A stretch of DNA of 64,000 bases from Candidatus Entotheonellaceae bacterium (GTDB lineage: Bacteria > Tectomicrobia > Entotheonellia > Entotheonellales > Entotheonellaceae), in the NCBI GenBank assembly GCA_965238075.1, contig OZ250173.1, positions 1,344,001 to 1,408,000 of the forward strand, given 5' to 3'. Numbering within the stretch: position 1 is the stretch's first letter; the number at the start of each line of letters is the position of its first letter. This document shows positions 10,367-50,884 of this stretch, piece after piece. Made by a program: the position numbers and the translations under genes. The notes beneath the pieces were generated by a model that did no database searches, was not told the origin of the DNA, and saw nothing but the letters and a program-made list of their open reading frames with translations.

Positions 10367-12175
10367 TCAGGGGCTCCGCAGCGGGTCCCTGAGGCTGCGC
10401 ACGAAGCGGATGAGCTGCCAGCGCTCGGCGTCCGACAGCGTGTGCTCGAAGCCGGGCATCGCCGTTCCCGCCATGCCATACGTCAGCCACCAGAAAATAT
10501 CGCCGTCGGTGTGATCGTCGACGTGGTCCGCCGTCAGGTCGGCGGGGGGCACGGCGAGGGCCGCGGCTGCCGTGCCGTCGCCGCGGCCTGCCGGGCCGTG
10601 GCAGGGAGCGCAGTGCGTGTTGAACAAAGCCGCCCCGCGTTCCACCGTGGCGGGACCTGGCGGCAGCGGGTTTACCACGTAGGACGTGGGATAGGCATCG
10701 ACGAGCACGACGCGCAGACAGAGCGCCGCGCCGCAGGCGAACAGCGCCAGGCCAACGGGAGCCGACCACAGCGGCAGACGGCGGCGCTGGCTGGCCCACA
10801 GCATGAAGACGGCCAGGGCGGTCAGCAGCACGCCAAGCACGCACGAGAAGATGTTCAGCGGGGAAATCATCACGGCAGCCGGCTCGAAGCGGCGCAGGCG
10901 CCCGAGATCGAGCGCCCCGGTGTCGGCGGTAAAGTCCACGGTGGTGCGCAGGGCGGAGGACTCAGGGGGCTGAACGGTCACCTGTACCTGCCAGTCCCCG
11001 GCCATGGATATGAGTCCTGAGGCGGTGTAGCGTCCGGGGCCGACGGGATCGGCGGTCACGTCCGACAGGCCCATGTCGTGATCGACCATGCGCATGTACA
11101 ACGAGACGGTGCTGCCGGACGGCATGGGTTGGCCGTTTCGCGCCGACAGGGTGACGTCAAACGTCACCCGGCCGATGTCGTTCGTCGGCGCCATGGCGAG
11201 GTGCACGTCCAGAGTCCCCATGCGTCGCTGCCACTCTTGGCGCCCGACGTGTCCGGGCCGCTCGGCGGGCGTGTAGGTGGTGAGCACACCGGCCAACACC
11301 ATGCCGCACAGAATGAGGCCGGCCTCGATCTGCACCAGGATCTGCAAGCGCCGCAGCACCTGCGCGGCTCCGTCGGGCACAAAGCGCCGCGCCTGCCGGG
11401 TCAGCGCCGGACCGATGGCCAGGAGGTGTGCGCTGGCGATGCCCAGGGCAAGCACGAAGGCGATCAGTTTGCCCAGCAGGGCGCGCCCGTAGGGGGTGAT
11501 GGTGAGCGCTTCGGGTCCGTAAACGTGCAGGAAGGTGGCGACGGCGCCCGTGGTGGCCAAGGCCAGCGTGGCGCCGAGCGCCAAAGCCGAAAAGCGCCGC
11601 ACCAGGCGGCCAATGGGGCGTGTGTGGCGGGTGAGGTCGCCGCGCAGCAGACGCCAAGGCAGGGCGGCAAAGCACAGCAAGCCGCCCCCCCAGGTCACGG
11701 CTGCCAGGACGTGCACGATGTCGCTGCAGAAGGGGATGACATCCGGACGGGCGGCGGCGTGACTGGTAAGGCTGACCGCGGCCACGAGCGTCAGCCCGAC
11801 GACGCCCGTGCCCACCCCCCCGGTTTTGGAGGTCCGGTGTTGCGTCAGCACGAACAGGACGGCGAACACCGGCGCCAGAACCGCCTTGATCAGGCTCATC
11901 TGTCCATAGCGCGATGCTGTCAGGAACAGCCACACGTCCGCCGGCACGGATACATCGACCACTTCGCCCGCCGCCCGTACCGCTTCCGCAAGCCCGGACA
12001 GCGCGAACAGGATGGCGCCGGCGATGACCCCGAATCGGATGCGCTTCGCCGCTCGCGCGGAGGCGGCATCGTCAGCGTCGCCGTATACCGGCCGCCACAC
12101 CGCCAGCCAGAACACCACGCCGCCGCCCAACGCCATGAACGCGGTAAAATGAACGGCTTTCAGAACGGCATACAT
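10367..12175 (-). CDS. CopD-family copper membrane protein fused to YtkA/FixH-like domain and C-terminal cytochrome c
   Basis: SLTSHAAA, DIVHVLAAVTWGGGL, RRFS, TPYGRALLGK (CopD); MVDHDMG..GRY..SMAGDWQV (YtkA); CAPCHG..GDG, PADLT, TDGDIFW, GTAMPGF (cyt c). Confidence 0.85.
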   Translation of the reverse strand: MYAVLKAVHFTAFMALGGGVVFWLAVWRPVYGDADDAASARAAKRIRFGVIAGAILFALSGLAEAVRAAGEVVDVSVPADVWLFLTASRYGQMSLIKAVLAPVFAVLFVLTQHRTSKTGGVGTGVVGLTLVAAVSLTSHAAARPDVIPFCSDIVHVLAAVTWGGGLLCFAALPWRLLRGDLTRHTRPIGRLVRRFSALALGATLALATTGAVATFLHVYGPEALTITPYGRALLGKLIAFVLALGIASAHLLAIGPALTRQARRFVPDGAAQVLRRLQILVQIEAGLILCGMVLAGVLTTYTPAERPGHVGRQEWQRRMGTLDVHLAMAPTNDIGRVTFDVTLSARNGQPMPSGSTVSLYMRMVDHDMGLSDVTADPVGPGRYTASGLISMAGDWQVQVTVQPPESSALRTTVDFTADTGALDLGRLRRFEPAAVMISPLNIFSCVLGVLLTALAVFMLWASQRRRLPLWSAPVGLALFACGAALCLRVVLVDAYPTSYVVNPLPPGPATVERGAALFNTHCAPCHGPAGRGDGTAAAALAVPPADLTADHVDDHTDGDIFWWLTYGMAGTAMPGFEHTLSDAERWQLIRFVRSLRDPLRSP

Positions 12176-15042: not shown

Positions 15043-15070
15043 ACCGTCAACCGCTGCCGTGGAGACCGGG

Positions 15071-15694
15071 ATGCAGCGTCTTTGGGCCCCCTTGCTTGTG
15101 ATCGTCGTCGGCGCGGTGAGCGTTTTCCTGTGGGCGGGTCTGGTCCGCTTTGCCCGGCAGGCGCCCGCGCTGGAGCCGCTTGGCACGCTGCCGGCCTTTG
15201 ACCTGATCGAGCGCCGTCAAGCACCGTTGCGCCTCGACGACCTGCGCGGCAAGGTGTGGGTGGCGAACTTCATGTACACGTCGTGCGTCGAGGTGTGCCC
15301 GCTGCAGAGCGCCGAGATGGCGCGTTTGCAGACGGCGTTTGCCGACCACGCGGACCTCCGCCTGGTGTCGATCAGCGTCGATCCCGAGCGCGACACCCCC
15401 GCGGTGCTGACGGCCTACGCCGAGAACTTTCGGGCTGACCCCGAGCGCTGGTTCTTCGCCACCGGCGAACCGGACGCCGTCGCCCGCCTGGCGCAGGAGG
15501 GCTTCCGGCTGAGCGCCGCGTCGTACGTGTCCGGGGAAGACGGCGAGGACTACGCGTTTATTCACAGCAACCGCTTCGTTCTGGTCGACCGCCAGGGCCG
15601 CATTCGCGGCTATTATCGAAGCACGGACCCCGACGACCTGGCACGGCTGCGGCGTGACCTGACGGTGCTGCTGCAGCAGGTCGCCGCGTCATGA
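15071..15694 (+). CDS. SCO1/SenC family copper chaperone
   Basis: N-terminal TM, FMYTSCVEVCP (CxxxC), SISVDPERDTP, IHSNRFVLVD. Confidence 0.92.
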   Translation: MQRLWAPLLVIVVGAVSVFLWAGLVRFARQAPALEPLGTLPAFDLIERRQAPLRLDDLRGKVWVANFMYTSCVEVCPLQSAEMARLQTAFADHADLRLVSISVDPERDTPAVLTAYAENFRADPERWFFATGEPDAVARLAQEGFRLSAASYVSGEDGEDYAFIHSNRFVLVDRQGRIRGYYRSTDPDDLARLRRDLTVLLQQVAAS

Positions 15695-25853: not shown

Positions 25854-28389
25854 CCACTCACCGTTAGGCGGTAGAGAATAAGACTTTATATTTTAAGGAC
25901 TTACGTAAATCAGGTCGCTCACACAAAGCCGAAGTGCGGTTGAGGCCGATTTCCCTTTTTCCGATCAAGCAAAATCGAGGCGGAAGCGTTGTCAAGCACA
26001 TTTCCGCCCCCTCGTTTAAGAACGCCCACTCTCCAACGTCGGGACCAGGATATCCGGGTCGTCGTTCACCCTGGTGCTGACGGCGTGCCTCTCGTACAGG
26101 CCGGCACGGAGTTCAAGCACTGCTCGGAGTCAGCTTCTCAGAAGGGGATCGACAGTCGCGCCACAACCGCCAGATCGACCGGACCCGTCTGGGTCTCCCG
26201 CCTTATGGTCTCCAATTCCAACAGCAATGGCAGCGCCCGCTGCGAGCGAGTCGGCAGGCTCCAAGCGGTGCCCAGGGCCAACTCCCGACCCTGCCCGCCC
26301 CAGCGCAACCGGCTGTACGGCGTCAGCAGACCCGGTAAGCCCAGCGCCTTCAGGCCGCCGTAGGCCACCTCGCTCTCCATACGGTACTGGGAACCCATCG
26401 CCCCCAGCCCCGCCGGGCGCATGACGCTATCCGCGTTGTCCCACAGCGTCGTCTGGCCACCGCCGTCCCGACCCCACGAGGACGTCACCGACGCCCTGAA
26501 GCCGCGCTGCTTCTCACCCGGGTCCCAGCTCGCCTGCACACCCAAGCCCCAGTCCCGGTAGTCGCTGGCATGCACCAACAGCACCCGACCGTGCAACGCT
26601 ACGTCCAGACCCCTGTGCGCATCCTGGTAACCCAGACGGATACCAGTTTCCAAGCCGCGGCCGCGTTCCGCATCGCCCCCGTCGAAACGCCAGCCAGCCT
26701 CCACCTGCACCCTCAGCGACCGCCCCACTGACAATGCCTCGTCGTGCACCCAGTCCAGCAGCAGCCGGCTCCGGTGTGCCTCGCCGCTTAGCTTGGCGAT
26801 GTCCTCCAAGGCGCCGGTCTCCAGGTACGCCGTGAAGCCATCCCCTCGCAAGCCCCATTCGTGGTTGCCCCGCCTGCTTAGCACCGCCCTCACGCCCCCT
26901 GCCAACATCCGAAAGTCGGCATTGAAGTGGTGAGCCCGGCCCGGCTCCTCGACAGCCACTTGACCCCCACCGAAACCGCCAATGCTCCACATGCTCAACC
27001 GGCCGTTCAACTGCCAGTACAAATACGGGTGAAACGTGGTCATGTGACTCTCCAACACCCCGTCGATCCCATCATCCGTGTACTCCAGGTCCCCCCAACT
27101 GCGCATGAACGACAGCCCGGCCAGCATCTGATCGTTGGCATACAGGTCCAGACCGACGTGAGCCGCTTCGAGACCGCCTCGATAAGCCATCCCGAGCCGC
27201 CTCAAGTCCCCGTTGAAGCGCTGCACATCCCCCTGGCCCCACAACACCGCTACCCGGCTCGTCTCTGCCTCACTCGCTCCCGACGACAGCTCGAAGGAGA
27301 CCCCTGACAGGCTGAACGCCTGACCCCGCATCCCTGAAAAGTCCCCCGAGCCCGGTCCCAGCGGCGCGGCTCCGGAAGCATCCAGGTCCTGCACGTAGAC
27401 GCTCCCACTCGGCGCCATACCGGAGCCGGGAGAGGCGACCCGGTGCGTTGGGTCAAAGCTGGCGAGGTTCCCCAACGACCCCAGCGACAAACTCCGTAGC
27501 CACGATCCTGGCGTGCCGGTTTCCCGATTCTCCGCGTTCCAACCCGATCCCATCGCTGCGCTGGTCCTGGCTGCGCCCCAGGCGCTGTGCACCACCGAGC
27601 CTTCCACGCCTCTGTCGCCGGCGCCGGCGCGGCCGATCCGCTCCGATTCTCGCGGGCTCAGAGCCGCGGCGCTATGGTCGCTCCCCGGCTGCGGGGTCGG
27701 CAGCGCGCCAACCGATGGCCCCAGGCGACTCCACTGACGATGCCGCTCAAACCGACCCTCTATCGCCGTCTGCGCGCTCACGGCCGTCGAGCGCGCGATC
27801 ACCGCCAGCGCCACCTCCAGCGTTTGCGAGAACCGCTCCGCCATCCGTGGCTGCTCGAAATGCACCTCGGTCGAGGCGGGCTCGCCTGCGCTCACCGCCT
27901 GCGGCAACGCGCCCAAGCTCAGCACAATCCCCTCCCCGGGATCGTCCACGTCGTCCATCAGTACCTCTACGGAAATCGTCCCCTCACTCTCGCCTTCCTC
28001 AAGCACCACCTTCGCCGGCACTCCACTGTAGTCCTCGTCAGTGGCCCCTCCTTTAGGCACCACCACCAGCGGTACTTCCACCCGCCGGTCCGCCGTCGGC
28101 GCCACCTTCACCTCGATGTCGGCCTGCTGGCCTTCCCCAATCTGGTACGCCGCCTGCCCAAAGCTCACCTCGAGCTCCACCAGCCCCTTGTCCTCCAGCG
28201 TCACTGTCGCCACGCCCGGCTCCCCTGCCAGTACTATCTCCGGCAGTTCCCCAAATCCCAGCTCCACCGTCTCGTCGTCCCCGTCCCCGTCATGGTTGGC
28301 CTCTATCGTGAACGTCTGTTCCGTTTCCTCGGCTGGGAAGGTCAGCCTGCCGGTGCCCTCCTGGGCATCCCACTCCTCCAAACCATCTA

Positions 28390-29597
28390 ATGTAGATCCC
28401 TATTGAGACCAAGAATTTTGGCTATGGACAGGCCCTGTGTGATAGAACCATCTATAAGCGTATCTCTCTCCCCACCGAAAACGGAGGAAACGATGGTTCG
28501 ACCCGATTTGAACACCTGGGGTCACAGCTTGGCTGATTTGCGACGCCTCGCGGTCAACGCCCAGCATCCACGCAGTCGCGAGCGTCTCCTGGCCCTCTAC
28601 ATGATCGCCTCTCAGCAAACCAATGCGACTACCTGGGCAGCCCACATCGGACATACCAAGGAGACCGTCCTGAGTTGGGTGCATCGTTACAATTTGGCCG
28701 GCCTCGCGGGCGTCATCTATCGTCACACCGGAGGCCGCCACCCCCTTTTGGCCAAGAGCAACTCGATCAACTCGTCCGCACGGTCGTCGAGACCGACCCG
28801 CTCGACCATGGCCTGCCAGGCCATGCCTGGACCTTGAAAAAGTTGCGACGTTGGCTTGAACAGGTCATCGGCTACGCATGCAGCCGCACGACCTTGCACC
28901 GAGTCCTGCGGGCTCAAAGACTGAGTTGGAAGAAATGCCAAAAAGTGCTCAAGAAGGCCGACCCGCAACGTCGTGCCGCCTTTGTCCAACAATTCCAGGA
29001 ATTGTTGGCGCGGCTTTGTCGCCGGGATATCCGCTTGCTCTATATCGATGAAGCCCATCTGCACCGCGATATGGACCTGGGCTACACCTGGGCGCCCGAG
29101 GGCAAACCCGCTTGGCGTCTGAGCGGCTGTGCCTCTTTGGCTGAACGCATCAACTGGTATGGCGCCTACGATTTCTCCTGCGGCCAGTGTTTCATCTGGA
29201 ACGAGGGCTCCTGTAACCAAGCCCATACGATCGAATTCTTACACCACGTTGCCGCTTGGATGGGTGATGAGCCTGGTGAGGTCGTACTCATCTGGGACGG
29301 CGCCCCGTGGCACAAGGCCAAGCGTGTGCAAGCGGCGGCTTCGGAATTGGGCTTCACGTTGGTCGCTCTGCCAAGCTATAGCCCAGACCTGAATCCGATT
29401 GAAGGTCTCTGGAAGTGGATGCGCGAAGAGGTGACGCGCAATTTCTGTCATGCCTCCATGCGCCATCTCTTTGATGCCTGCAAAGCCTTCATCGATCGTA
29501 TCAATGCCGATCCGCAACGGTTGGTCTCGCGGTTGTGGCCAAGATTCGAACTCGACCTGGAGTTCGAGAAATTCTTGGTATCAAAGTGAACGCACTT
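28390..29597 (+). mobile_element. IS630-family insertion sequence
   Basis: TA duplicated at 28388-9 and 29598-9; imperfect TIRs sharing TTGA(G/T)ACCAAGAATTT; transposase inside. Confidence 0.92.
28493..29589 (+). CDS. IS630 transposase in two overlapping ORFs (-1 frameshift)
   Basis: OrfA HTH from ATG 28493; OrfB with IDEAH, WDGAPWH, LPSYSPDLNPIEGLW; C5T4 run at ~28741. Confidence 0.85.
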
Positions 29598-32500
29598 TAG
29601 GGTATAGTCGGCGGCTTCCGTCGTCTCCGGCCGCGTCACCCGGATCGGGATCGCCAACTCCTCGTCCCAGCCCTGGCTCAGCTTCACCGTCACCGTCACC
29701 GCCTCTCCACCTTCGGTTGCTGTGTAGTTCTCCTCCTGGTAGCTCACCACCAGCTTCGTCTCCACTTCGAAGGCCTCCGCCGCCCGGTTGCCGTTGCCGG
29801 CCCCGTCCTCGGCCACATCCTCGGGGACCTCCACCACGACCGGCTGCCCCAGCTCCGCCGGCTTGATCGTGGCTCGATACTCACTCGATGACGCCTCGGT
29901 GAAGTCCGCCACCATCCCGTTGCTGACCTGGATATCTTCCGGCTCAAAACCCTCCACCGGCTCCGTCGGTCCTTCGATCGTTACCTCCGGCCGCTCCAGA
30001 TCCGCCTCGGCCCGGCGGACCTCGATGGCGTAGGCCTTGGTGGTCACCCCGTCCGCGGCCGTCACTACGACTGCGATGGTGGTCGTGTCACCCTCGATCA
30101 GGGCGATGTCGCCGCTCGCACTCCCACTGGCAACCGGCGTGCCGTTGACCGTCACCGTCGCGCCGGCGTGCTCCGTGGCCGGCGTCACCGTCACGCTGTC
30201 CACGGCGTTCCCAACGTCGACTCTATAGTCCGTGGTGCCCACGGCGAACACCGGCGTCAGCGTCCCCGATGAGATGGTCAGTCCTGACAGGTTCGCGTTG
30301 TCGCTGAGCGGTCGGGTCACGTCGATGGTGGTGGTCTGGATGGTCGTCCCGTCCGCGGCCGTCACCGCCACCGTGATGCGGGTCACGTTATTCTCGGTCA
30401 GGGCAATGTCGCCGCTGGCAGTTCCACTGTCCACCGGCGTGCCGTTCACCGTCACCGTTGCTTGGGCGTCTGCCGTCGTCGGCGTCACCCTCACACTGTC
30501 GGTAAGGGCCTCCACGCGGACGGCGTAGCTCGTGGTCGTCGCGGCGAAATCCGGCATCAGCGTCCCCGACGAGAGGGTCAGGTTCGACAGGTTCGCGTTG
30601 GTGCCGCTGCCAAGGATCTCCACGGCCACCTCTACGTTGCTCGTGTCGAACCCGTCCGTGACGGCGTAGCTAAACGTGTCGGTGCCGGTGACGTTGGCGT
30701 TGGGCGTATAGGTGACGGTGGTGTTGTTGGGGTTGATCGCGACGGTCCCGTTGCTCGGGGCCGTTGGGAACCCCACCTCGACCACGCGGAGGGCAGTCCC
30801 CGGGTCCACGTCCGAGTCGTTTTCCAACACGCCAATGACGACGGGAATGTTCTGGCTGGTCTCGGCGGTGTCAGTCACCGCCACCGGCGGGTCGTTCACG
30901 GCATTCACGTTTATGGTGATGGTGTATGCCTTGTCGCTGTCGTCCGTGCCGTCACTGACCTTGAAGGCGAACGTGGCGAAAGCGGCGCCGTTGGCGTTGG
31001 CCGGCGGGGTGTACGCGAGACTGCCGAGCTCGGCCTTCGTCACCTGCCGGGGTGGGCTGACGCTGGCGATGGCCGTGCCGCCAACCGACAGCGTCCCCTG
31101 GTTCGACCCGGGCAGTGAGGTGATCTTCACGTGCCCCAGCGTGGCGCCGGCGTCGACGTCCGAGAAGGCGAAGTCCGCCTCCTTAAAGATGTACGCCGTG
31201 TCCTCCTCCGTGGACACCGTCTTATCGGAACCCGTGATGGGGTCGTTCACGGCATTCACGTTAATGGTGATGGTGTATGCCATGTCGCTATCGGCCACGC
31301 CGTCATTGACCTTGAAGGCGAACGTCGCGAAAGCGGCGCCGTTGGCGTTGGCCGGCGGGGTGTACGTGAGATTGCCGGCATTGAGCCCGGTCTTTGTCAC
31401 CTGCCTGGGCGTGGTGACACGAGTGATGGCCGTGCCGCCAACCGACAGCGTCCCCTGCCCGGGCAGTGAGGTGATCTTCACGTGCCCCAGCGTGGCGCCG
31501 GTTTTGACGCTCGCGAAGCCGAAGTCGTCCTCCTTAAAGATGTAAGCCGTGTCCTCGTCGATGGACACCGTCTTTGCGGAAGCCGTGGGGGCGTCGTTGA
31601 CCGGCGTGGCGGTCGTGGTGGCTGCCAAGCCGCGACCGGAAGCGTTCTCGGCACGCACCGCAAACGTGTACAGGGTGCCGTTGAGCAGTCCGGTCACGGT
31701 GGTGGTGGTAGTGCTCGCACCGCTGTCGCTGATGTCGGCGAAGGTCGTGCCATTGTCGATGCTGACCTGGTACTTGGTGATCGTGGGGTTGTTCGGATCG
31801 TCCCAGGACAGCGTGGCCTGGCTGTTGCTCGGCGTGGCCGAGAGGTTCGTCGGGGCGTCCGGCGAGGCCACCACCGGCGTGGCATCCACGGTGGCTGGCC
31901 AACTGCTGTCCGCGGAGCCCTGTGCGGAGTCCTGTGTCGCCAGCACCGTGAAGGTGTAAGCGGTGCCATTGGCCAACGAGTCAATGGCAGCGATTGTCTT
32001 CGACCCCGAACCGGCCGACACGCTCACCGAGCTGCCGCCCGAGACGTCTACCCGATAATCGGTGATCCCGGGGTTCCTGTCCCACTCCAGGTAGATTCGG
32101 CCGTCGTCCGGCGTCGCCACCAGATTAGCCGGCGCGGGCCACAGTGGCGTGGCAGTCGCGGTGGATGCCGCGCCGTAACCCCACCAGTTCACCGCGCGCA
32201 CCGCCAGCGTGTACCCGGTGCCGTTGGTCAGACCGGTCACGGTAGTGGTGGTCGTGCTCTTGCTGCTGTCGCTGATGTCGGTGAAGGTCGTGCCATTGTC
32301 GATGCTGACCTGGTACTTGTAGATCGAGTCGTCGCCCGGATCGCTCCAGGACAGAGTGGTCTGGCGGTCGTCACCCTCGGTGGCCGTGAGGTTGTCCGGG
32401 GCCGGCATGGATATTGGTCTGGCCGTCACGGTGGGTGATTCCTTGCCGTGCAGCGCCCGCACGCTGAAGGTGTACAGGATGCCGTTGGTCAGTGGATAAA

Positions 32501-33867
32501 CGATGTCGGTCGTCGTCGAACCCGATCCGCGAGGAAGGAATATGCCTTTACTCCGGTCGCTGCCTACGGCAGTGATCCAATAATCGCCGATGGCGGCGTG
32601 GCCGTTGTTCCACTCCACAGTGACCCGACCCTGGCCCGCCGTCGCCACCAAACCGGTCGGCGCGGGCCACAGTGGAGTGGCCGTCACGGTGGATGCCGCG
32701 CCGTCATCGGTATTATTCACCGCCCGCACCGCAAACGTGTACTCGGTGCCGTTGGTCAGACCGGTCACGGTGTAGCTGGTCGTGGTGTCATCGCTGCCGC
32801 TGATGACGCTGAAGGAGCCACCGTCGGTGCTGTACTCGTACTCGTCGATTGTGCTGTCGCCCGGATCGTCCCAGGTAAGACCGATCCGTCTGTCACCCAC
32901 CTCGGCCTCGAGCTTCGTCGGGGCGGCCGGCACCGGTGCAGGCGTGGCGGTCACGGTGGATGCCGCGCCGTTACCGCCAGCGTTCACCGCCCGCACCCCA
33001 AACGTGTACTCGGTGCCGTTGGTCAGGCCGGTCACGGTGTAGCTGGTCGTGGTGTCACCGCTGTTGGGGATGTCGGTCCAGCTGCCGTAGGTCCCCGTGT
33101 CTGTTTTCCGGCGATACTGGTACTTCGTGATGGTGTTGTTGGCCGGATTGGTCCAGGACAGAGTGACCTGGCCGTCATCCGGCGTGGCCGAGAGGTTCAT
33201 TGGGGCGGCCGGGGCGCGAATTTGCCCATTGACCCTGATTTGTAACACAGTGAAATTAGTCGAACCCCACCCGGTTGAGCCCGGAGTGCGCGTGTGGCGT
33301 TCATTCCCGATGCTCCACCCGATGGCCGAACCGGAATCTTGGAGGGCAGATGTCGTATTGTCCCATTGGGGGTAACTAGCACTGCCGTTAGGCGCGAAAA
33401 CCATTTGCACGAAGTATTGGGTGTTTGCATTCAGACTGGCACCGGCAGGGGCGGTGAACGTTCGGAGTCCCGCCGCCACGTTGGCCGGGTTGTTCAAGGT
33501 ATATAGCGTATTGCCCCCCGGATCGCCCGATCCGTTGTCACCCCTCACCGTTACCGTCAGGGTTCCGCTACCCGGAGCCACGCCTACGCCCAACTCGATA
33601 CTTGTCAAGGAGTAGCCCAGTGTATTCTGGCCCGTGGTGAACCCCTGAGCATGATCACTGGGAGTTACGGGTGTCTGACCGGCGTTAGATTGGCCCGTGT
33701 TGCTCACGAGCACGGTCTGGGCGTGCACTAGCGCCGGAAAGCCAAGCATCAGCGTCGCGGCGGCGAGGAATACGCCGATGATTGTCAGCCGCGGGTCTTT
33801 GCTCCGCATCACGCCCTGAATATCCGAGCGGTCCAATGCGCGACGACCCCTAGGATGAGCGGTCCGG

Positions 33868-34161
33868 TCAGGATTTTTCTTCGCAGATTGGCGCGTCAAC
33901 AAAGTTGGGGGCCCTCCTTGTTCTGTTTTCAGCCATTGTACTGGGTCTCGTATCTGCCTTCTTGTCCGAAGCGCTAGTCCCCGATTCGTCTCCGCCGGCC
34001 TTCACCCACTCGTCCACTTCCGAGAGCCTGAAGCGCAGCAACCGTCCCACCCGGCGAGCGGGAAAGCCTTTCGCGGCGACCCAGCGGTAAATGGACACCT
34101 TAGTCACCTGCAGATGCGCGGCGACCTCGGCGATACCGACCCAGGCTTCTTCAGTGGCCAT
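33868..34161 (-). CDS. Excisionase-like HTH (HTH_17) DNA-binding protein
   Basis: IAEVAAHLQVTKVSIYRW...FPARRVGRLLRFRLSEVDEW. Confidence 0.85.
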   Translation of the reverse strand: MATEEAWVGIAEVAAHLQVTKVSIYRWVAAKGFPARRVGRLLRFRLSEVDEWVKAGGDESGTSASDKKADTRPSTMAENRTRRAPNFVDAPICEEKS

Positions 34162-40515: not shown

Positions 40516-40986
40516 TCATTGCGCTGCGATACGCATGACGACGTCCCACTCCTGCTGCGTCACCGGCTGCACCGACAGGCGGCTGCCCTTGCGGATCACC
40601 ATCATCGCTTCCAGACCGGGGATGTCCTTCAGCGCCGCTAAGGTGATGGGCGTCTTGAAGGTGCGCACGTAGCCGACGTCGACCATCAGCCAGGTCGGCT
40701 GCGCCGAGTCGCTCTTCGCGTCGTAATAACGGCTGTTAGGGTCGAAGGCGGTGTCGTCGGAATAAGCCTCGCGCACCACTTCGGCAACGCCGTAGATGCC
40801 CATGGGCTTGGCGTTGCTGTGGTAGAAGAGCACGCCGTCGCCGAGCCGCATGTCGTCGCGCATGAAATTGCGCGCCTGGTAGTTGCGCACCCCTTCCCAG
40901 GACGTCGAGCCGTCGCGCTGCAGGTCGCCGATCGAGTAGACGCTCGGCTCCGATTTCATCAGCCAGTAGCGTTTTGGTTCGGCCAT
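40516..40986 (-). CDS. EVE domain protein
   Basis: YWLMKSEP, WEGVRNYQARNFM, FYHSN, YYD.KS, RLSVQPV. Confidence 0.93.
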   Translation of the reverse strand: MAEPKRYWLMKSEPSVYSIGDLQRDGSTSWEGVRNYQARNFMRDDMRLGDGVLFYHSNAKPMGIYGVAEVVREAYSDDTAFDPNSRYYDAKSDSAQPTWLMVDVGYVRTFKTPITLAALKDIPGLEAMMVIRKGSRLSVQPVTQQEWDVVMRIAAQ

Positions 40987-41032: not shown

Positions 41033-41503
41033 CTATACGGCTGGAGCGCTGCTGTCCCGCACGCCCTGCACGGCGTCGGCGATGTCGGCCACGTCGAGCA
41101 CCATTTCCATCAGCGTCACCTGCTCCTCATACACCTCGGGCGACACCTGGCATTTGATCGCCTCCTCGGTGACGTGGTAGACCGGCAGCCCCAACGACGT
41201 GCCGGCCAAGGCGCCGGCCCACGAGGGATCGCCCTCGGTCACCGTCAGGGCGTACAGGCGGCTGCTCTCGGCGGTCGGCGTGCCCAGCACCACCACCATG
41301 TCCTCGCGCGGGTATTGCTCGGCCACCCGCTTGATCTCCTCCTGACCTTCCAGGTCAAGGGCGCCGGCGGCCGTTCAAACGAAACAATGGGTCACCTCCA
41401 GCACCACCTCGGCGCCGGCGCTCGTTGTGCATTGCGCGATGGCGCCGCCCTGGATGCCGTCGCGCTCGCCCAAGGCGATAACCTTCTTACCTTGCAGTTG
41501 CAT
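41033..41503 (-). CDS. grdA: Glycine/sarcosine/betaine reductase component A, selenoprotein (Sec43, 156 aa)
   Basis: ATG 41503 with RBS AAAGGAG; GKKVIALGERDGI..THCFV-TGA(41375-7)-TAAGALDLE in frame with GDPSWAGALAG..LGLPVYH. Confidence 0.93.
41341..41359 (-). promoter_or_regulatory. Candidate SECIS hairpin of grdA
   Basis: CUUGACCU-GGA-AGGUCAGG, 8-bp stem starting 15 nt after UGA. Confidence 0.7.
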
Positions 41504-41537
41504 GATGAATCTCCTTTCGGGGTTGTCCGTTGGCGCC

Positions 41538-41744
41538 TAGAGCGCTTTCGGAGCAAGACGGTTTGCAGGCCGGGACTTTCCCCTCACCCCAACCCTCTCT
41601 CGCCGGGGGAGAGGGAGCAAAAACCCCCTCTCAGGGTAAAGTCAGCCTCTTGATCCCCTCCCCCCTCCGTGGCGGAGGGCCAGGGAGGGGGCGTATGAGC
41701 CGACCGGTATTTCCACCGGTGCAATCAGATACGTAAATGCTCTA
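41538..41744. mobile_element. MITE (TAGAGC..GCTCTA ends) carrying REP hairpins
   Basis: Ends TAGAGCGCTTTCGG / revcomp TAGAGCATTTACG; inverted sister copy at 50699-50884. Confidence 0.75.
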
Positions 41745-43190
41745 ATCGTTGCGCTCCAAAAGCAATGACACGCCGTCGGCCATCTGCGTCATACGGCCGA
41801 GGAACAAGCTGCCCTTGGCGAGCAGCAGCACGCGCTGCAGGTCGCCGCCGCGCAGGCCGTCCACGGCGTGGCCGAGAAAGGGCACCGCCGAGGCGATATG
41901 CCCCTGCGTGGGTGAAAAGCCGGGCATGCCGTGCGCGGCGACGAAATCCGGCACCTGCGCGCGGGTGATTTGCTTGCCCATCGCCGCCAGGCCCGCGATG
42001 ACGCGGTAGTTGAGGAGCGGCACGTTGCCGCTGCCCGCCGGCTCGGTGACCTCCGGGTTGTGCAACTCGGTGGCGTACTTGTCGATGTCGCCGAAGCTCA
42101 GCCCCAGGCGCTGCAGAGGCTCGCTGACGAGTTGCTCGAAGATGGCCTTCTGCGACGGCCCGGCGGCCACGGTGTGGCGGCCCAGGGAGTCCAGTCGGAG
42201 TCTCGGTGAAGCGCCGTCGTCGCCGCTGACCAGAATGGCTACCGCAGCCAGCACGTCCTCCAGAATGGGCTGGTCGTGCTGCACGTGGCCGCGGTACTTC
42301 ATGCCCAGTTTGGAAAGCGCGCACCCCCCAACCACGACAACGTGCGAAAACACCCGGGCGCTGACCAGCCCGCCGGCGATGGCCAGGGCGTGCAGCGGGC
42401 CGCAGCAGAAGCCCTTGATATCGACGCCGGTTGCTGCCTGGCAGCCGCTCATTTCCGCCACCGCCTTGGCCAGGTTGCCGCCGCCGCGCTGGTAGCGGTC
42501 GCCCACCGCCTCCTCGCCGCTATTGAGTACGTAGGGGATGTCCATCGGGTCGATGGGCAACTGCGCCAGCAGGGTGCGCATGGCCAGGACGGCGGTCGTC
42601 TTGCAGGCCAGATTTTCGAGCAGCACGTCGGCGGCGAGCGTGGCATCCACCTCATGCGCGGCATGGAAACAGCCGATGCGGGAACCGTCGCGCAGGAAGA
42701 GCGGCAGGGCGGGCATGTCGCCTGTCAACCGGGCATCAAGATCGGCCTGCGAAACGCCCTTGCCCAATTGCTCGAGGTCGGCCGGCGTGCACAGCGGATG
42801 GACGTCCAGCGCGGGGCGGATGGACTCGATGAAGCCCGTATCCAAACTTACGAGATTGAAAACGTCGGCGATTTTCAGCCAGCCGTAAAACTCCTCCTCC
42901 GGCATGATCTCGCCGTGCGGCCCCCAGCGCTCGCCGCAACCGGCGTGCCGGAACCATGGCGTCGGCAGGCTGGCGAGAGCGTCCGGGTGGATGGCGCCGA
43001 GAAAGGCCTGGTTGGGTGGGTAGGCCGCGGCGTCGGCGTAGCCGCGCAGGTGGGCTTGCAGGGTATCGGCCACCGCCGGGTCGCGGTCGATGTCGCGGCT
43101 GGGCTTGGAGCCGTAGCGTACCAGCCCGGGGGTGTGGGCCAGGAAGAATCGCACCCCCCGGATGACGGGCTGCGCTGTCATCTGCTGCAT
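41742..43190 (-). CDS. grdC: Glycine/sarcosine/betaine reductase component C, beta subunit
   Basis: YPPNQAFLG, GEIMPEEEF, LLENLACK, SGEEAVGDRYQRGGGNLAKAVAE, FCCGP, ELHNPE, GFSPTQGHI, KGSLFLGRMT. Confidence 0.9.
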   Translation of the reverse strand: MQQMTAQPVIRGVRFFLAHTPGLVRYGSKPSRDIDRDPAVADTLQAHLRGYADAAAYPPNQAFLGAIHPDALASLPTPWFRHAGCGERWGPHGEIMPEEEFYGWLKIADVFNLVSLDTGFIESIRPALDVHPLCTPADLEQLGKGVSQADLDARLTGDMPALPLFLRDGSRIGCFHAAHEVDATLAADVLLENLACKTTAVLAMRTLLAQLPIDPMDIPYVLNSGEEAVGDRYQRGGGNLAKAVAEMSGCQAATGVDIKGFCCGPLHALAIAGGLVSARVFSHVVVVGGCALSKLGMKYRGHVQHDQPILEDVLAAVAILVSGDDGASPRLRLDSLGRHTVAAGPSQKAIFEQLVSEPLQRLGLSFGDIDKYATELHNPEVTEPAGSGNVPLLNYRVIAGLAAMGKQITRAQVPDFVAAHGMPGFSPTQGHIASAVPFLGHAVDGLRGGDLQRVLLLAKGSLFLGRMTQMADGVSLLLERND

Positions 43191-43212
43191 GCGTGTTCCT
43201 CGGGCGGCGGGG

Positions 43213-44502
43213 TCAGTACTCGATACAACTCATGCTGGTAAAGCCGTAGTGGTCGTCGTGGCGCGGTGGCGGCGGCAGTTGCCCGGCGGCCGGCACGCGC
43301 TGGTCGCGCAGCGGGCCGATGTCCTTGTACTGCAGGCCGATGACCCGTTCCACCGGCGGCAGGTCAGGCACCTCCAGCGTGCGCGTCTTGAAGAAGCTGG
43401 TGCTGACGATGGCGTTGGCCTCGGGCAGCGGCTCCAGCATGGTCGGGGCGGCCTCGGTGGCGTCGTCCTCGCTGGTCAGGAAGACGGTCTTGATGCCCAG
43501 TTGCTCGCAAGCCTGAATGGTGCGGACGACCTCGATGAACTCGTTGCCGCCGGCGTCCCAGGTCACCATCGCGCCCTGCGCGCCCAGGAGCTTTGCCAGC
43601 TTCGCCGTCTGGTTGGCCATGAGTTGCTTTTCGTGCTGCGTGGTCCACTCGGTACGCAGCGTGATGACACCCAGGAAATTCCAGTCGACGCCGTGGCGGC
43701 GGTACAGGTCGAGCAGCACGGGGTTGTTGGCCACCGTCCACGACATGGCAAACGCCGTGCGGTACGGGCCGGTGAGGGCGCCGTCGAGGATTTCGTTGGG
43801 GTGCAGGAACCATGGCGGCGTCAGTTGGGTGAGGCCGTAGGTGGTGGTGCAGAACGCCGTCGGCGAGCCGGACATGGCCTGCGGCGAGTGCACGCACCAG
43901 ATGTAGATCACGTTAGGGAGGTCAGGGTCGACTACGCGCAGTTCGAACACTTCCTGCTGCGGCGGGGTGAGGTGGCGCGTCGCCGCCGCGACCTGATCGT
44001 TGACCACCAGAGCCGCCTTGTGCACGGCGTCGTTCTGGGCTTCGTTGCCGAGGCCGGGGTCGGGTTCGACGACCGCGCACAGGTGGATGAGTTGGCTCAG
44101 CGGGATGAGTTCCGACCACGGACCGGACATGTCGAGGTAGACTTCCACGAAGTCGCCGCCGGCGTCGTGCCAGTTGACGCTCGACACCTCGGTGATGCCC
44201 ATGCCGGAGAGGCGGTGCGTGCGGCCTTCGCCTACCGTGGTGATGGCGCGGCCAGCGGTGCCGGGGTAGATGACGCCGGGACCTTCCACCTTGATGCGCG
44301 GCTCGATGACATCGCGCACCGGCCAGATGCGGGCGGAGTCGCCGGGACAGGCGATGTCCAGATCGACGCTGGCGATGCGGGGGTCGGCGTGCACGGCTTC
44401 GATGACGGCGTCCTTATCGACCTGCAAATGGCCGTCGGCGTAGCGGGTTTCGGAGCCGAAGGTGATGCGCTCAACGGGGAAGGTGCCCATCTCAAGACGC
44501 AT
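43213..44502 (-). CDS. grdE: Reductase component B GrdE/GrdI-like subunit
   Basis: MRLEMG.F, PGDSARI.PVRDVIEPR.K, VGEGRTH.L, DMSGP, HPNEILDGA, NNPV..DLY..HG, GIKTV. Confidence 0.85.
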   Translation of the reverse strand: MRLEMGTFPVERITFGSETRYADGHLQVDKDAVIEAVHADPRIASVDLDIACPGDSARIWPVRDVIEPRIKVEGPGVIYPGTAGRAITTVGEGRTHRLSGMGITEVSSVNWHDAGGDFVEVYLDMSGPWSELIPLSQLIHLCAVVEPDPGLGNEAQNDAVHKAALVVNDQVAAATRHLTPPQQEVFELRVVDPDLPNVIYIWCVHSPQAMSGSPTAFCTTTYGLTQLTPPWFLHPNEILDGALTGPYRTAFAMSWTVANNPVLLDLYRRHGVDWNFLGVITLRTEWTTQHEKQLMANQTAKLAKLLGAQGAMVTWDAGGNEFIEVVRTIQACEQLGIKTVFLTSEDDATEAAPTMLEPLPEANAIVSTSFFKTRTLEVPDLPPVERVIGLQYKDIGPLRDQRVPAAGQLPPPPRHDDHYGFTSMSCIEY

Positions 44503-45841
44503 GCGCCACCTCCTGCTCCGGGGTCATTTCCAACGGGTCGAACAGCGTCGGGCCGGGCACCGGCGTGCAGATGGCGTCGAGGGCGGTGCGCACGATGCGC
44601 ATGCCGTAGGCGTAATCCTTCTCGGGGCCGAGGTTCGGGTCGCCGCACACGTGCTCGATGCGCGAGCCGCGGATGACGCGGACGGCGCCGGTGGTGAGGG
44701 CGAGGTCATAGATGGCGGAGATCATGCCGACGGGGATACCGGCGCGCTCGATTTCCTTGGCGATCGTTGCACCGCAACGATTGCAGGTGCCTCACGTGGC
44801 CACCAGGAGACAGCCGTCAACCCCGCTGTTGACGAGGTCCTGGGCGATGCTGCGGCCCAAGTCGCACGACATGGCGACCGGCGTGGCGACGCCCGGCAGC
44901 GCGTAGATGGAACTGAAGACGCCGCCGATTTGGCCGTCGGCTTCCAGGTCGCGCAGGAAGTTGAGGGGCAGGATGTAGTTGGGATTGGAATTGACGATAT
45001 GGTTGAAATAGCCGGCGTGGTACGCCTCCCAATCGGCGTCGGAGAGGCTTTGCAGCTCGGCGACCGAGTGGCGGTAATACCGGCTGGCGTTGGCGGCGAC
45101 CTGCTTGTCCGGGTTGCCCTTGCGCACCAGGCCGCCGGTGGTGACCATGGCGATGGTGGCTCGCGACAGATCAGTGACGGGCACGGCGGGCTCGACTTTT
45201 TCCGGCGCGTGGATGGGTACCTCGGTAACAAACGGCTGATCCTTGAGCTTGGCCAGCAGCATATCGAGGGCGCGCTGGTAGCCGGGGCGTTGACGGTCAT
45301 GCACGCGCCGCACGCCGCGCGGCATGTAGCCGTCGATCTCCGCCGGTCCGAGCGCCTCCCCGCGGCCCAGCTTGCCTGCCAGCCGCACCATGGCGGCCAG
45401 CGCCTGCGGCATGTCGGCGGACGTTTCGCCGGTCGGCACCATGACGACGTCCGGCCAGCCGCTCAGCGCCCCCGGATTGTCCGGGTGCATGCCGCTGATA
45501 GCCTTGATGCCCAGCGCCTGTGCCGTCTTGCAAACCTCGGCGCACGCCAGCCCGTAGCGCCCGGAGCCAAACGCCGGCCCCGCTACCAGGATGTCCGGCT
45601 TCAGCGCCTCCAGATGCCCCTTGATGGCGGCCACGGCCTCCGCTTCCCGCTCGTTGAAGTAGTTGTCGCCGCAGACCAGCGTGCCCACCACGCTGCCCGC
45701 GCCGCCCAGCGCCTGTTGCAGCGCCCGGCCCGCGCCTACGGGCTCGTTTTCGAGCGACACCCCAACGTTCGCCGCGTCCTCGCCGCCAATACCGCCAAAG
45801 AACTGATTCACGTAATGCACCACGCGCAACGGGCTGTCCAT
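44492..45841 (-). CDS. grdB: Reductase component B selenoprotein (Sec350, 449 aa)
   Basis: VVHYVNQFFGGIGGED, CGDNYF, AGPAF, VTTGGLV.KGN; LVAT-TGA(44792-4)-GTCNRC (UxxCxxC) in frame with KEIERAGIP..HVCGDP. Confidence 0.93.
44763..44781 (-). promoter_or_regulatory. Candidate SECIS hairpin of grdB
   Basis: AUCGUUGC-GGU-GCAACGAU, perfect 8-bp stem starting 10 nt after UGA. Confidence 0.75.
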
Positions 45842-50701: not shown

Positions 50702-50884
50702 AGCATTTCCGTAATCGCCAACTCATACACCCCACTCCCTAGCCCTCCCCCTCAAGGGTGGAGGGAGCCAGCGAACTAAAGCCTTCCCCACGAAGGGGTC
50801 TGCTCCCTCTCCCCTGGCGGGAGAGGGTTGGGGTGAGGGGGAAGACCTTCGGATCGCAAACCATTTTGATCCGAAAGTGCTCTA
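50699..50884. mobile_element. MITE (TAGAGC..GCTCTA ends) carrying REP hairpins
   Basis: TAGAGCATTTCCG / revcomp TAGAGCACTTTCGG; sister of 41538-41744. Confidence 0.75.

Follow-up and report, generated by a model that had tools for sequence, protein, structure and literature searches.

Within a 64,000-nucleotide stretch of contig OZ250173.1 (hereafter the window), from a Candidatus Entotheonella relative (Tectimicrobiota), we analysed an operon that encodes the selenoproteins GrdB and GrdA together with GrdE and GrdC. It very probably specifies a functional reductase system of the glycine/sarcosine/betaine reductase (Grd) superfamily that does without GrdD. That GrdC alone acts as protein C in a working GrdD-less reductase, with the full chain of reactions through to release of acetyl-coenzyme A (acetyl-CoA), is a proposal whose chances we put at even. 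In the textbook enzyme, the acetyl thioester on protein C is released as acetyl phosphate, and the step on protein C from carboxymethyl-selenoether to acetyl thioester is described as unresolved, according to the parts of PMC10298544 available to us. An earlier, sequence-only reading of this DNA had noted that grdD and trx are not in the cluster, which we could confirm at the locus. It understated the loss of grdD, which extends to the whole genome and the lineage and therefore changes the product and not only the gene layout.

Recoding, GrdD and the short GrdC

The grdB and grdA genes are split in the open reading frame track, and the sequence-only reading had them read through in-frame UGA codons at the motifs ATU-GTCNRC and CFVU-TAAG, in an operon ordered grdB-grdE-grdC-grdA; we found the read-through well founded and the order correct, with all four genes on the minus strand. 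On the sequence evidence, the two UGA codons are read as selenocysteine (Sec) and are not chance stops, since similarity to the Acetoanaerobium reference continues across each (GrdB, 141/345 residues identical before the UGA and 37/85 after; GrdA, 18/38 before and 52/106 after), UGA occurs at the same motif in 75/75 GrdA and 69/69 near-full-length GrdB homologues extracted from loci, and an Rfam Sec insertion sequence (SECIS) follows the grdB codon. The GrdB sequence used in comparisons lacked the protein's last 11 residues, which leaves the conclusions unaffected. A search for the Sec machinery found tRNA-Sec, selA, selB and selD all encoded in the genome; the hairpin after the grdA UGA had no Rfam match in the window. 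The reading of the two selenoprotein genes as pseudogenes, disrupted by nonsense codons, finds support in the stops read under translation table 11 and in nothing else, and we regard it as negligible in view of the SECIS match, the full Sec machinery and the constant UGA position. The operon thus has what defines the superfamily, namely a GrdA with CxxU, GrdB and a partner subunit, GrdC, and Sec machinery with SECIS, and all four proteins pass general family cut-offs (TIGR01918, PF07355 and PF09338 for GrdB/GrdE).

Thirteen RNA-labelled sequencing runs hold the stretch or part of it; contigs from four of them (four studies) span the operon but also its flanks and may contain DNA, so expression is not demonstrated. 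A genome-wide UGA read-through scan, too noisy for a selenoprotein count, pointed to more probable selenoprotein genes at C1:189693, C1:2948346 and C1:83177-84135 (UGSC-like, PrdB-like, thioredoxin-like and peroxiredoxin-like), and the genome seems rich in selenoproteins.

The genome is a single contig of 3.35 Mb with 62% G+C, rated 93% complete. GrdD was found in it neither with the family model (nothing at E 0.01), nor by tblastn and phmmer with real GrdD, nor in exhaustive profile searches with each of its three parts, of which the C-terminal domain bears the cysteine; a stand-alone GrdD cysteine domain was likewise sought there and not found. In 8 of the 14 genomes used as controls, the family model did pick up weak matches. 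Across the phylum, GrdC exceeds its cut-off in 15 of 17 genomes and GrdD in none of the 17. Beyond the phylum, we searched 50 of the 80 genomes behind GrdC loci, namely the non-Tectimicrobiota with longer contigs. GrdD passed its cut-off in one, the Synergistota control, and in none of the other 49, of which 26 gave weak PlsX-like/GrdD-model matches of at most 30 bits. The control was a further set of 44 Synergistota genomes that encode GrdC; GrdD is present in 43 of them, and the lone miss has a partial GrdC. Metagenome loci retrieved with a deep-branching short GrdC contained no grdD (0/80), and every complete GrdC in them was short (77/77, 14 of them with <400 bases of downstream sequence). 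A PlsX-like match near grdC in locus L040 turned out to be an ordinary PlsX.

GrdC itself differs with and without GrdD. After the last conserved motif, 7–23 residues remain in 78 GrdD-less GrdC rows (two more were not measurable), compared to 35–43 in 33 GrdD-paired rows (including one duplicate and one with grdD on another contig). The extra tail of GrdD-paired GrdC is apparently an amphipathic helix and shows weak similarity to GrdD's own first helix (best E 0.002). Five natural GrdC-GrdD fusions of 837–861 residues (L100 (G101:C10), P0127, P0129, P0132 and P0137) have a short linker and neither the GrdC tail helix nor the GrdD N-terminal helix. From the helix missing in GrdD-less GrdC and both helices missing in the fusions, we infer that the two helices hold the separate subunits together. 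A complex prediction of a GrdD-paired GrdC tail (L042, residues 466–513) with its GrdD scored 0.03 and counts neither way. The five fusions require four changes on a quick tree, although its strong branches force only one.

The short GrdC was predicted with high scores (predicted local distance difference test, 93; predicted template modelling score, 0.94) and matches FabH, OleA, PqsC and thiolases over the whole chain (Z about 21–23, root-mean-square deviation 3–5 Å, 260–290 residues). It has about 150 residues more than these proteins. Its Cys262, invariant in 111 rows, aligns with the FabH nucleophile, and the invariant Cys, Glu and His of the core are common to short and GrdD-paired GrdC. 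The short-GrdC clade has conserved basic residues of its own (K29, K106, R232 and K298). No solved GrdC structure was found by sequence search. In the divergent homologues P0150 and P0153 the catalytic cysteine is apparently replaced.

Substrate and electron supply

GrdE reads GPYRTAF where the references read GNCVSAC, and so lacks both pyruvoyl cysteines. This site is also absent from betaine GrdI and fluoroacetate FarE, and betaine reductase needs no Schiff base, as stated in the accessible portions of PMC10838667. A GrdE without the pyruvoyl site suggests that the substrate probably needs no Schiff base, and leaves osmolyte scavenging, the function proposed in the sequence-only reading, plausible, although no test lent it support and the genome has no BCCT transporter. 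GrdB fails the glycine motif of PMC9751293, which L042, L097 and L099 pass, and also the GrdF (sarcosine) motif from the same source, for which the sequences compared included no positive control. Substrate-specific models gave GrdB 373.9 bits for glycine (TIGR01917, cut-off 602.2) and 359 bits for betaine (GrdH, NF040795, cut-off 775), and GrdE 120.8 bits for FarE (NF053623, cut-off 675). The best-scoring ones were those for sarcosine GrdF/GrdG, yet at 402/209 bits they reach about half or less of the cut-offs of 800/780. Quick trees, which held no sarcosine, proline or Far sequence, joined both proteins to Nitrospinota, SAR202 and two sequences from deltaproteobacteria in a branch of good support. 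The comparison of GrdB/GrdE with known reductases proposed earlier hence puts them outside the glycine reductase branch and apart from the single long-branch betaine reference (L098), with sarcosine and proline reductases not in the trees.

With clostridial glycine reductase (Acetoanaerobium noterae L097; Thermovirgaceae L042), the operon shares CxxU in GrdA, UxxCxxC in GrdB and the invariant Cys/Glu/His in GrdC, GrdB being 42% and GrdC 42–43% identical to these references. It differs in having no GrdD, no GrdC tail helix, no GrdE pyruvoyl site, an unmatched glycine motif and the order B-E-C-A, in a host that respires oxygen and has no trxB or ackA. Betaine reductase GrdH/GrdI (Enterococcus gilvus L098, as annotated) likewise has a partner subunit without the CxxxC pyruvoyl site. 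Its B and E subunits are however only 36% and 35% identical to those in the window, and L098 has grdD, trxB and a BCCT transporter, none of which our genome encodes. Fluoroacetate reductase FarB/FarE (Cloacibacillus porcorum) is a further B/E pair without the pyruvoyl site and is proposed to supply the shared A/C module from a substrate whose leaving group is not an amine; FarB is described there without the CxxC that the window GrdB keeps, C. porcorum has grdC and grdD, and its radical SAM and antiporter neighbours differ from those of our operon (available parts of PMC10838667). The portions of PMC9768040 and of a riboflavin preprint (10.64898/2026.02.13.705874) accessible to us describe, respectively, a cluster with both grdC and grdD and a further B/E-like pair.

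For the leaving group X of a substrate X-CH2-COO-, our leading though tentative candidate is a trimethylammonium or sulfonium, as in betaine-like compounds; a halide or thioether is possible and somewhat less probable, another group is unlikely, and glycine or sarcosine as substrate is quite improbable. A betaine-like compound is our first guess for a sponge symbiont. The sole informative neighbours are tripartite carboxylate transporters at L064 and L073, deltaproteobacterial loci of the same B/E branch. Of the 17 phylum genomes, 14 have an orthologue at ≥66% identity. The genome has single copies of grdA and grdC and two more B/E pairs, each with a UGA. One, at C1:598869-601660 (L004), has the order E-B and no CxxC after Sec; the other, at C1:2595935-2598567 (L006), has the order B-E, keeps CxxC and has genes for a luciferase-like monooxygenase and a hydrolase as neighbours. 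In L015 and L017, a comparable pair of genes is found ~2.7 kb away from the main operon.

As to electrons, the search for trxAB suggested earlier yielded half of the pair. The genome has one canonical thioredoxin gene, far from the operon, and no TrxB above cut-off, as is true for the five other genomes of the genus, and the catalytic subunit of ferredoxin:thioredoxin reductase is encoded. Thioredoxin genes in 27 of the 80 loci, one being the control, support the usual thioredoxin link for the GrdD-less class. Of the marks of an acetyl-phosphate-type system, GrdD, ackA and TrxB above cut-off are all missing, with TrxA and ferredoxin:thioredoxin reductase present.

Proposed mechanism and alternatives

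In the known chemistry, which we presume for this operon, Sec of GrdB would attack C2 of X-CH2-COO-, and X would leave to give a carboxymethyl-selenoether. The carboxymethyl group would then pass to Sec of GrdA, one GrdA/GrdC pair presumably serving all three B/E pairs, after which GrdC would cleave the selenoether and hold the acetyl group on Cys262. Without GrdD, GrdC would transfer the acetyl group to CoA, in a reversal of acetyl-CoA loading by FabH and thiolases, to yield acetyl-CoA for respiration or assimilation and not acetyl phosphate for ATP. Oxidised GrdA would finally be reduced by the single thioredoxin, with ferredoxin:thioredoxin reductase proposed as its feeder because TrxB is missing. 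The phosphorolytic cysteine is reportedly carried by GrdD (Kohlstock et al. 2001). Acetyl-CoA is less energy-rich than acetyl phosphate, so acetyl transfer to CoA should be feasible, and it would be the simplest exit for an enzyme of the FabH fold that carries an acetyl-cysteine and lacks a second subunit.

Two sets of observations bear on this exit. No ackA, pta, PduL or acylphosphatase was found in the genome, and neither ackA nor pta in 14 genomes of the family (0/14 for each); ackA is present in 30/30 GrdD-bearing compared to 15/49 GrdD-less genomes, counts in which kin are not independent. Moreover, glycine-type GrdE with pyruvoyl cysteines occurs in seven GrdD-less loci (for six of these, a GrdD search of the genome came up empty), and GrdB passing the published glycine motif in two. 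Judging from these loci, the ordinary carboxymethyl-GrdA intermediate is very likely also what the short GrdC works on, with a difference at the exit alone. Eight loci (L060, L063, L076, L078, L079, L082, L054 and L056), from Syntrophorhabdus, Smithellaceae, Syntrophobacteraceae and Dehalococcoidales, have glycine-type grdB/grdE with a short grdC and no grdD; with a substrate that is probably known, they would be the best natural test cases.

Several points weigh against a GrdC that releases acetyl-CoA unaided. All GrdD-less GrdC falls to one side of a branch supported at 100, so that helix loss and GrdD loss on that branch are one evolutionary event and not 78, and three short GrdC (P0134, P0136 of Dehalobacterium and P0140, gene context unseen) group with the GrdD-paired side or adjoin it. 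GrdC is only 11–20% identical to the FabH-like structures, the profile alignment is unreliable beyond the cysteine region, and a shared FabH/thiolase fold shows no function. The 15 GrdD-less genomes with ackA also count here, as does acetyl-CoA synthetase (AcsA), above cut-off in the genome, since free acetate would serve too. The 49 GrdD-less genomes are metagenome-assembled, with completeness unreported, and the GrdD-bearing control set is nearly all Synergistota. As regards a betaine-like substrate, the genome encodes no BCCT transporter, and no conserved neighbour names the substrate in open reading frame clustering of the 80 loci, gene lists of 21 loci or Pfam searches of 25 picked neighbours.

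Free acetate is the product in the main rival to acetyl-CoA release, where the acetyl-GrdC thioester is hydrolysed and the acetate reactivated by acetyl-CoA synthetase, the purpose being to free the leaving group (amine, nitrogen or sulfur) or to detoxify, not to gain thioester energy. AcsA and the missing acetyl-phosphate enzymes agree with hydrolysis, and an oxygen-respiring cell can afford the loss; it would, however, squander a thioester which could be kept by a fold that uses CoA, anaerobes with little energy to spare (Syntrophorhabdus and Smithellaceae among them) retain the short GrdC as well, and mere hydrolysis would leave the clade's own basic residues unexplained. We consider it unlikely, though a serious contender. 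Less likely still is that the acetyl group leaves in another way, through an unrelated GrdD replacement encoded elsewhere, through a different thiol acceptor (holo-acyl carrier protein or a small-molecule thiol) or as acetyl phosphate made by the short GrdC. Our searches exclude GrdD homologues only, and the ackA genes and weak PlsX-like matches in GrdD-less genomes would fit; but besides thioredoxin no non-Grd family occurs in more than 9 of the 80 loci, and our own genome has neither a PlsX-like match nor an acetyl-phosphate consumer.

A role mainly in the repair or disposal of carboxymethylated metabolites (S- or N-carboxymethyl adducts, haloacetates), as opposed to feeding, appears very unlikely. 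No transporter or catabolic gene is conserved beside the operon, its retention in 15 of 17 phylum genomes is housekeeping-like and a B/E pair that cleaves fluoroacetate and has no pyruvoyl site is published (in the portions of PMC10838667 at hand); the low FarE score argues against such a role, as do L064 and L073, whose place behind a tripartite carboxylate transporter suggests an imported substrate. Nor is there much room for an ordinary glycine or sarcosine reductase with a grdD missed by the assembly or our searches, which we rate as more improbable than repair. The completeness of 93%, the UxxCxxC kept in GrdB and the family cut-offs passed by GrdC and GrdA would allow it, and yet the assembly is a single contig, GrdD is missing throughout the phylum with a working control, GrdE has no pyruvoyl cysteines, GrdB passes neither motif and both proteins lie outside the glycine branch.

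Operon layout, host and significance

Coordinates of the operon and its elements are collected in Table 1. The putative promoter that the sequence-only reading had placed ahead of the operon stands only in part: upstream conservation starts at its −35 box in all aligned regions, although the candidate alone is at chance level (one found, 0.7 expected). A terminator scan gave chance level. The palindromic repeat that enlarges the grdC-grdA spacer is dispersed, with dozens of genome copies and another near 50800-50843 of the window; its copy in the spacer is absent from other strains, where the gap is ~40 bp (L007, L008 and L010); the join 41533-41742 across the spacer was seen in two sequencing runs, and the repeat stands outside the Grd system. 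Downstream of grdA, an EVE-domain gene (40516-40986), directly after grdA in 9 of the 80 loci, all Tectimicrobiota-like, is possibly co-transcribed with it and looks like plain synteny. The operon is split in some relatives, grdC having no grdA within the fetched flank in L011, L014, L024 and L041.

Table 1. Features of the Grd operon, with positions in the window.
Feature	Position	Strand	Description
Sigma-70-type promoter candidate	45925-45897	minus	TTGACC-17-CAGAAT; kept in 6/6 aligned upstream regions
grdB-type selenoprotein B	45841-44492	minus	449 aa, Sec350, UxxCxxC kept; TIGR01918 421.7 bits, above cut-off
In-frame UGA (Sec350) of grdB	44794-44792	minus	context ATU-GTCNRC
SECIS of grdB	44791-44754	minus	Rfam SECIS_4 (RF01990), 42.9 bits (gathering 38); directly 3' of grdB UGA
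grdE-type partner subunit	44502-43213	minus	429 aa; PF09338; two pyruvoyl-site cysteines absent; start overlaps grdB end
Short grdC	43190-41742	minus	482 aa; NF040746 604.9 bits (cut-off 450); FabH/thiolase fold, Cys262, no C-terminal helix
grdC-grdA spacer	41741-41504		dispersed palindromic repeat; 65 blastn pieces genome-wide
grdA selenoprotein A	41503-41033	minus	156 aa, CxxU, Sec43; NF040748 206.6 bits (cut-off 130)
In-frame UGA (Sec43) of grdA	41377-41375	minus	context CFVU-TAAG
SECIS-like hairpin after grdA UGA (predicted)	41361-41338	minus	predicted alike in 9/9 relatives folded

The nearest GrdC relatives, at 90–95% identity, are labelled uncultured Ca. Entotheonella or Tectimicrobiota, followed at 47–78% by Nitrospinota, SAR202 and other Dehalococcoidia, Binatia and deltaproteobacteria. 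Sequencing runs labelled as sponge metagenome contain roughly half the words sampled. At 26138-33902 of the window, large proteins with fibronectin-III/cadherin and Calx-beta repeats, which are typical of sponge symbionts, are encoded. Cytochrome c (10367-12175) and SCO genes (15059-15694), cited earlier as signs of respiration, are indeed in the window, though 25–30 kb from the operon, and a heme-copper oxidase subunit I encoded elsewhere in the genome is better evidence. With this oxidase, a GrdB/GrdE pair outside the glycine branch and no grdD, the view that a respiring host outside the clostridia has a variant Grd system dependent on selenium is supported. Neither outcome that would have spoken against it, a genome without Sec machinery or GrdB/GrdE inside a glycine reductase clade with a grdD/trx locus elsewhere, was observed. 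The accompanying statement that Grd complexes are known mainly from Firmicutes is right for the characterised enzymes, but Grd genes in Chloroflexi and other phyla are published (accessible sections of PMC9751293). Neither a PlsX-like match nor a clear FabH match to the GrdC profile was found in the genome, nor a PlsX-like match worth noting in the 17 phylum genomes, and lipid synthesis may start differently in this genome and phylum.

Our literature search, whose scope did not extend to supplements (Fig. S6 and Table S5 of PMC9751293 may list such genomes), turned up neither a description of a GrdD-less class nor a link between Entotheonella and glycine reductase. The present analysis contributes the count of GrdD across the phylum with its control, the pattern of tails and fusions, the lack of acetyl-phosphate enzymes and the GrdD-less loci of glycine type. 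We tentatively propose, at somewhat less than even chances, a second widespread Grd class, in which a one-subunit FabH-fold protein C converts carboxymethyl-selenoether directly to acetyl-CoA as a ferredoxin-driven, ATP-free entry route. If so, betaine-like compounds, halo- and thio-acetates would enter central metabolism in Tectimicrobiota, SAR202, Binatia, Nitrospinota and syntrophic deltaproteobacteria, through interchangeable B/E modules for marine substrates yet to be found, and the selenoether-to-thioester step would be the work of GrdC, not GrdD. A natural GrdC working without GrdD would make that step testable with one soluble protein. Should acetyl-CoA be the product, automatic annotation as an acetyl-phosphate-making glycine or betaine reductase would be wrong in many abundant bacteria of the sea, sponges and soil and in many syntrophs, and the numerous divergent B/E modules would point to undiscovered reductive cleavages in oxygen-respiring organisms.

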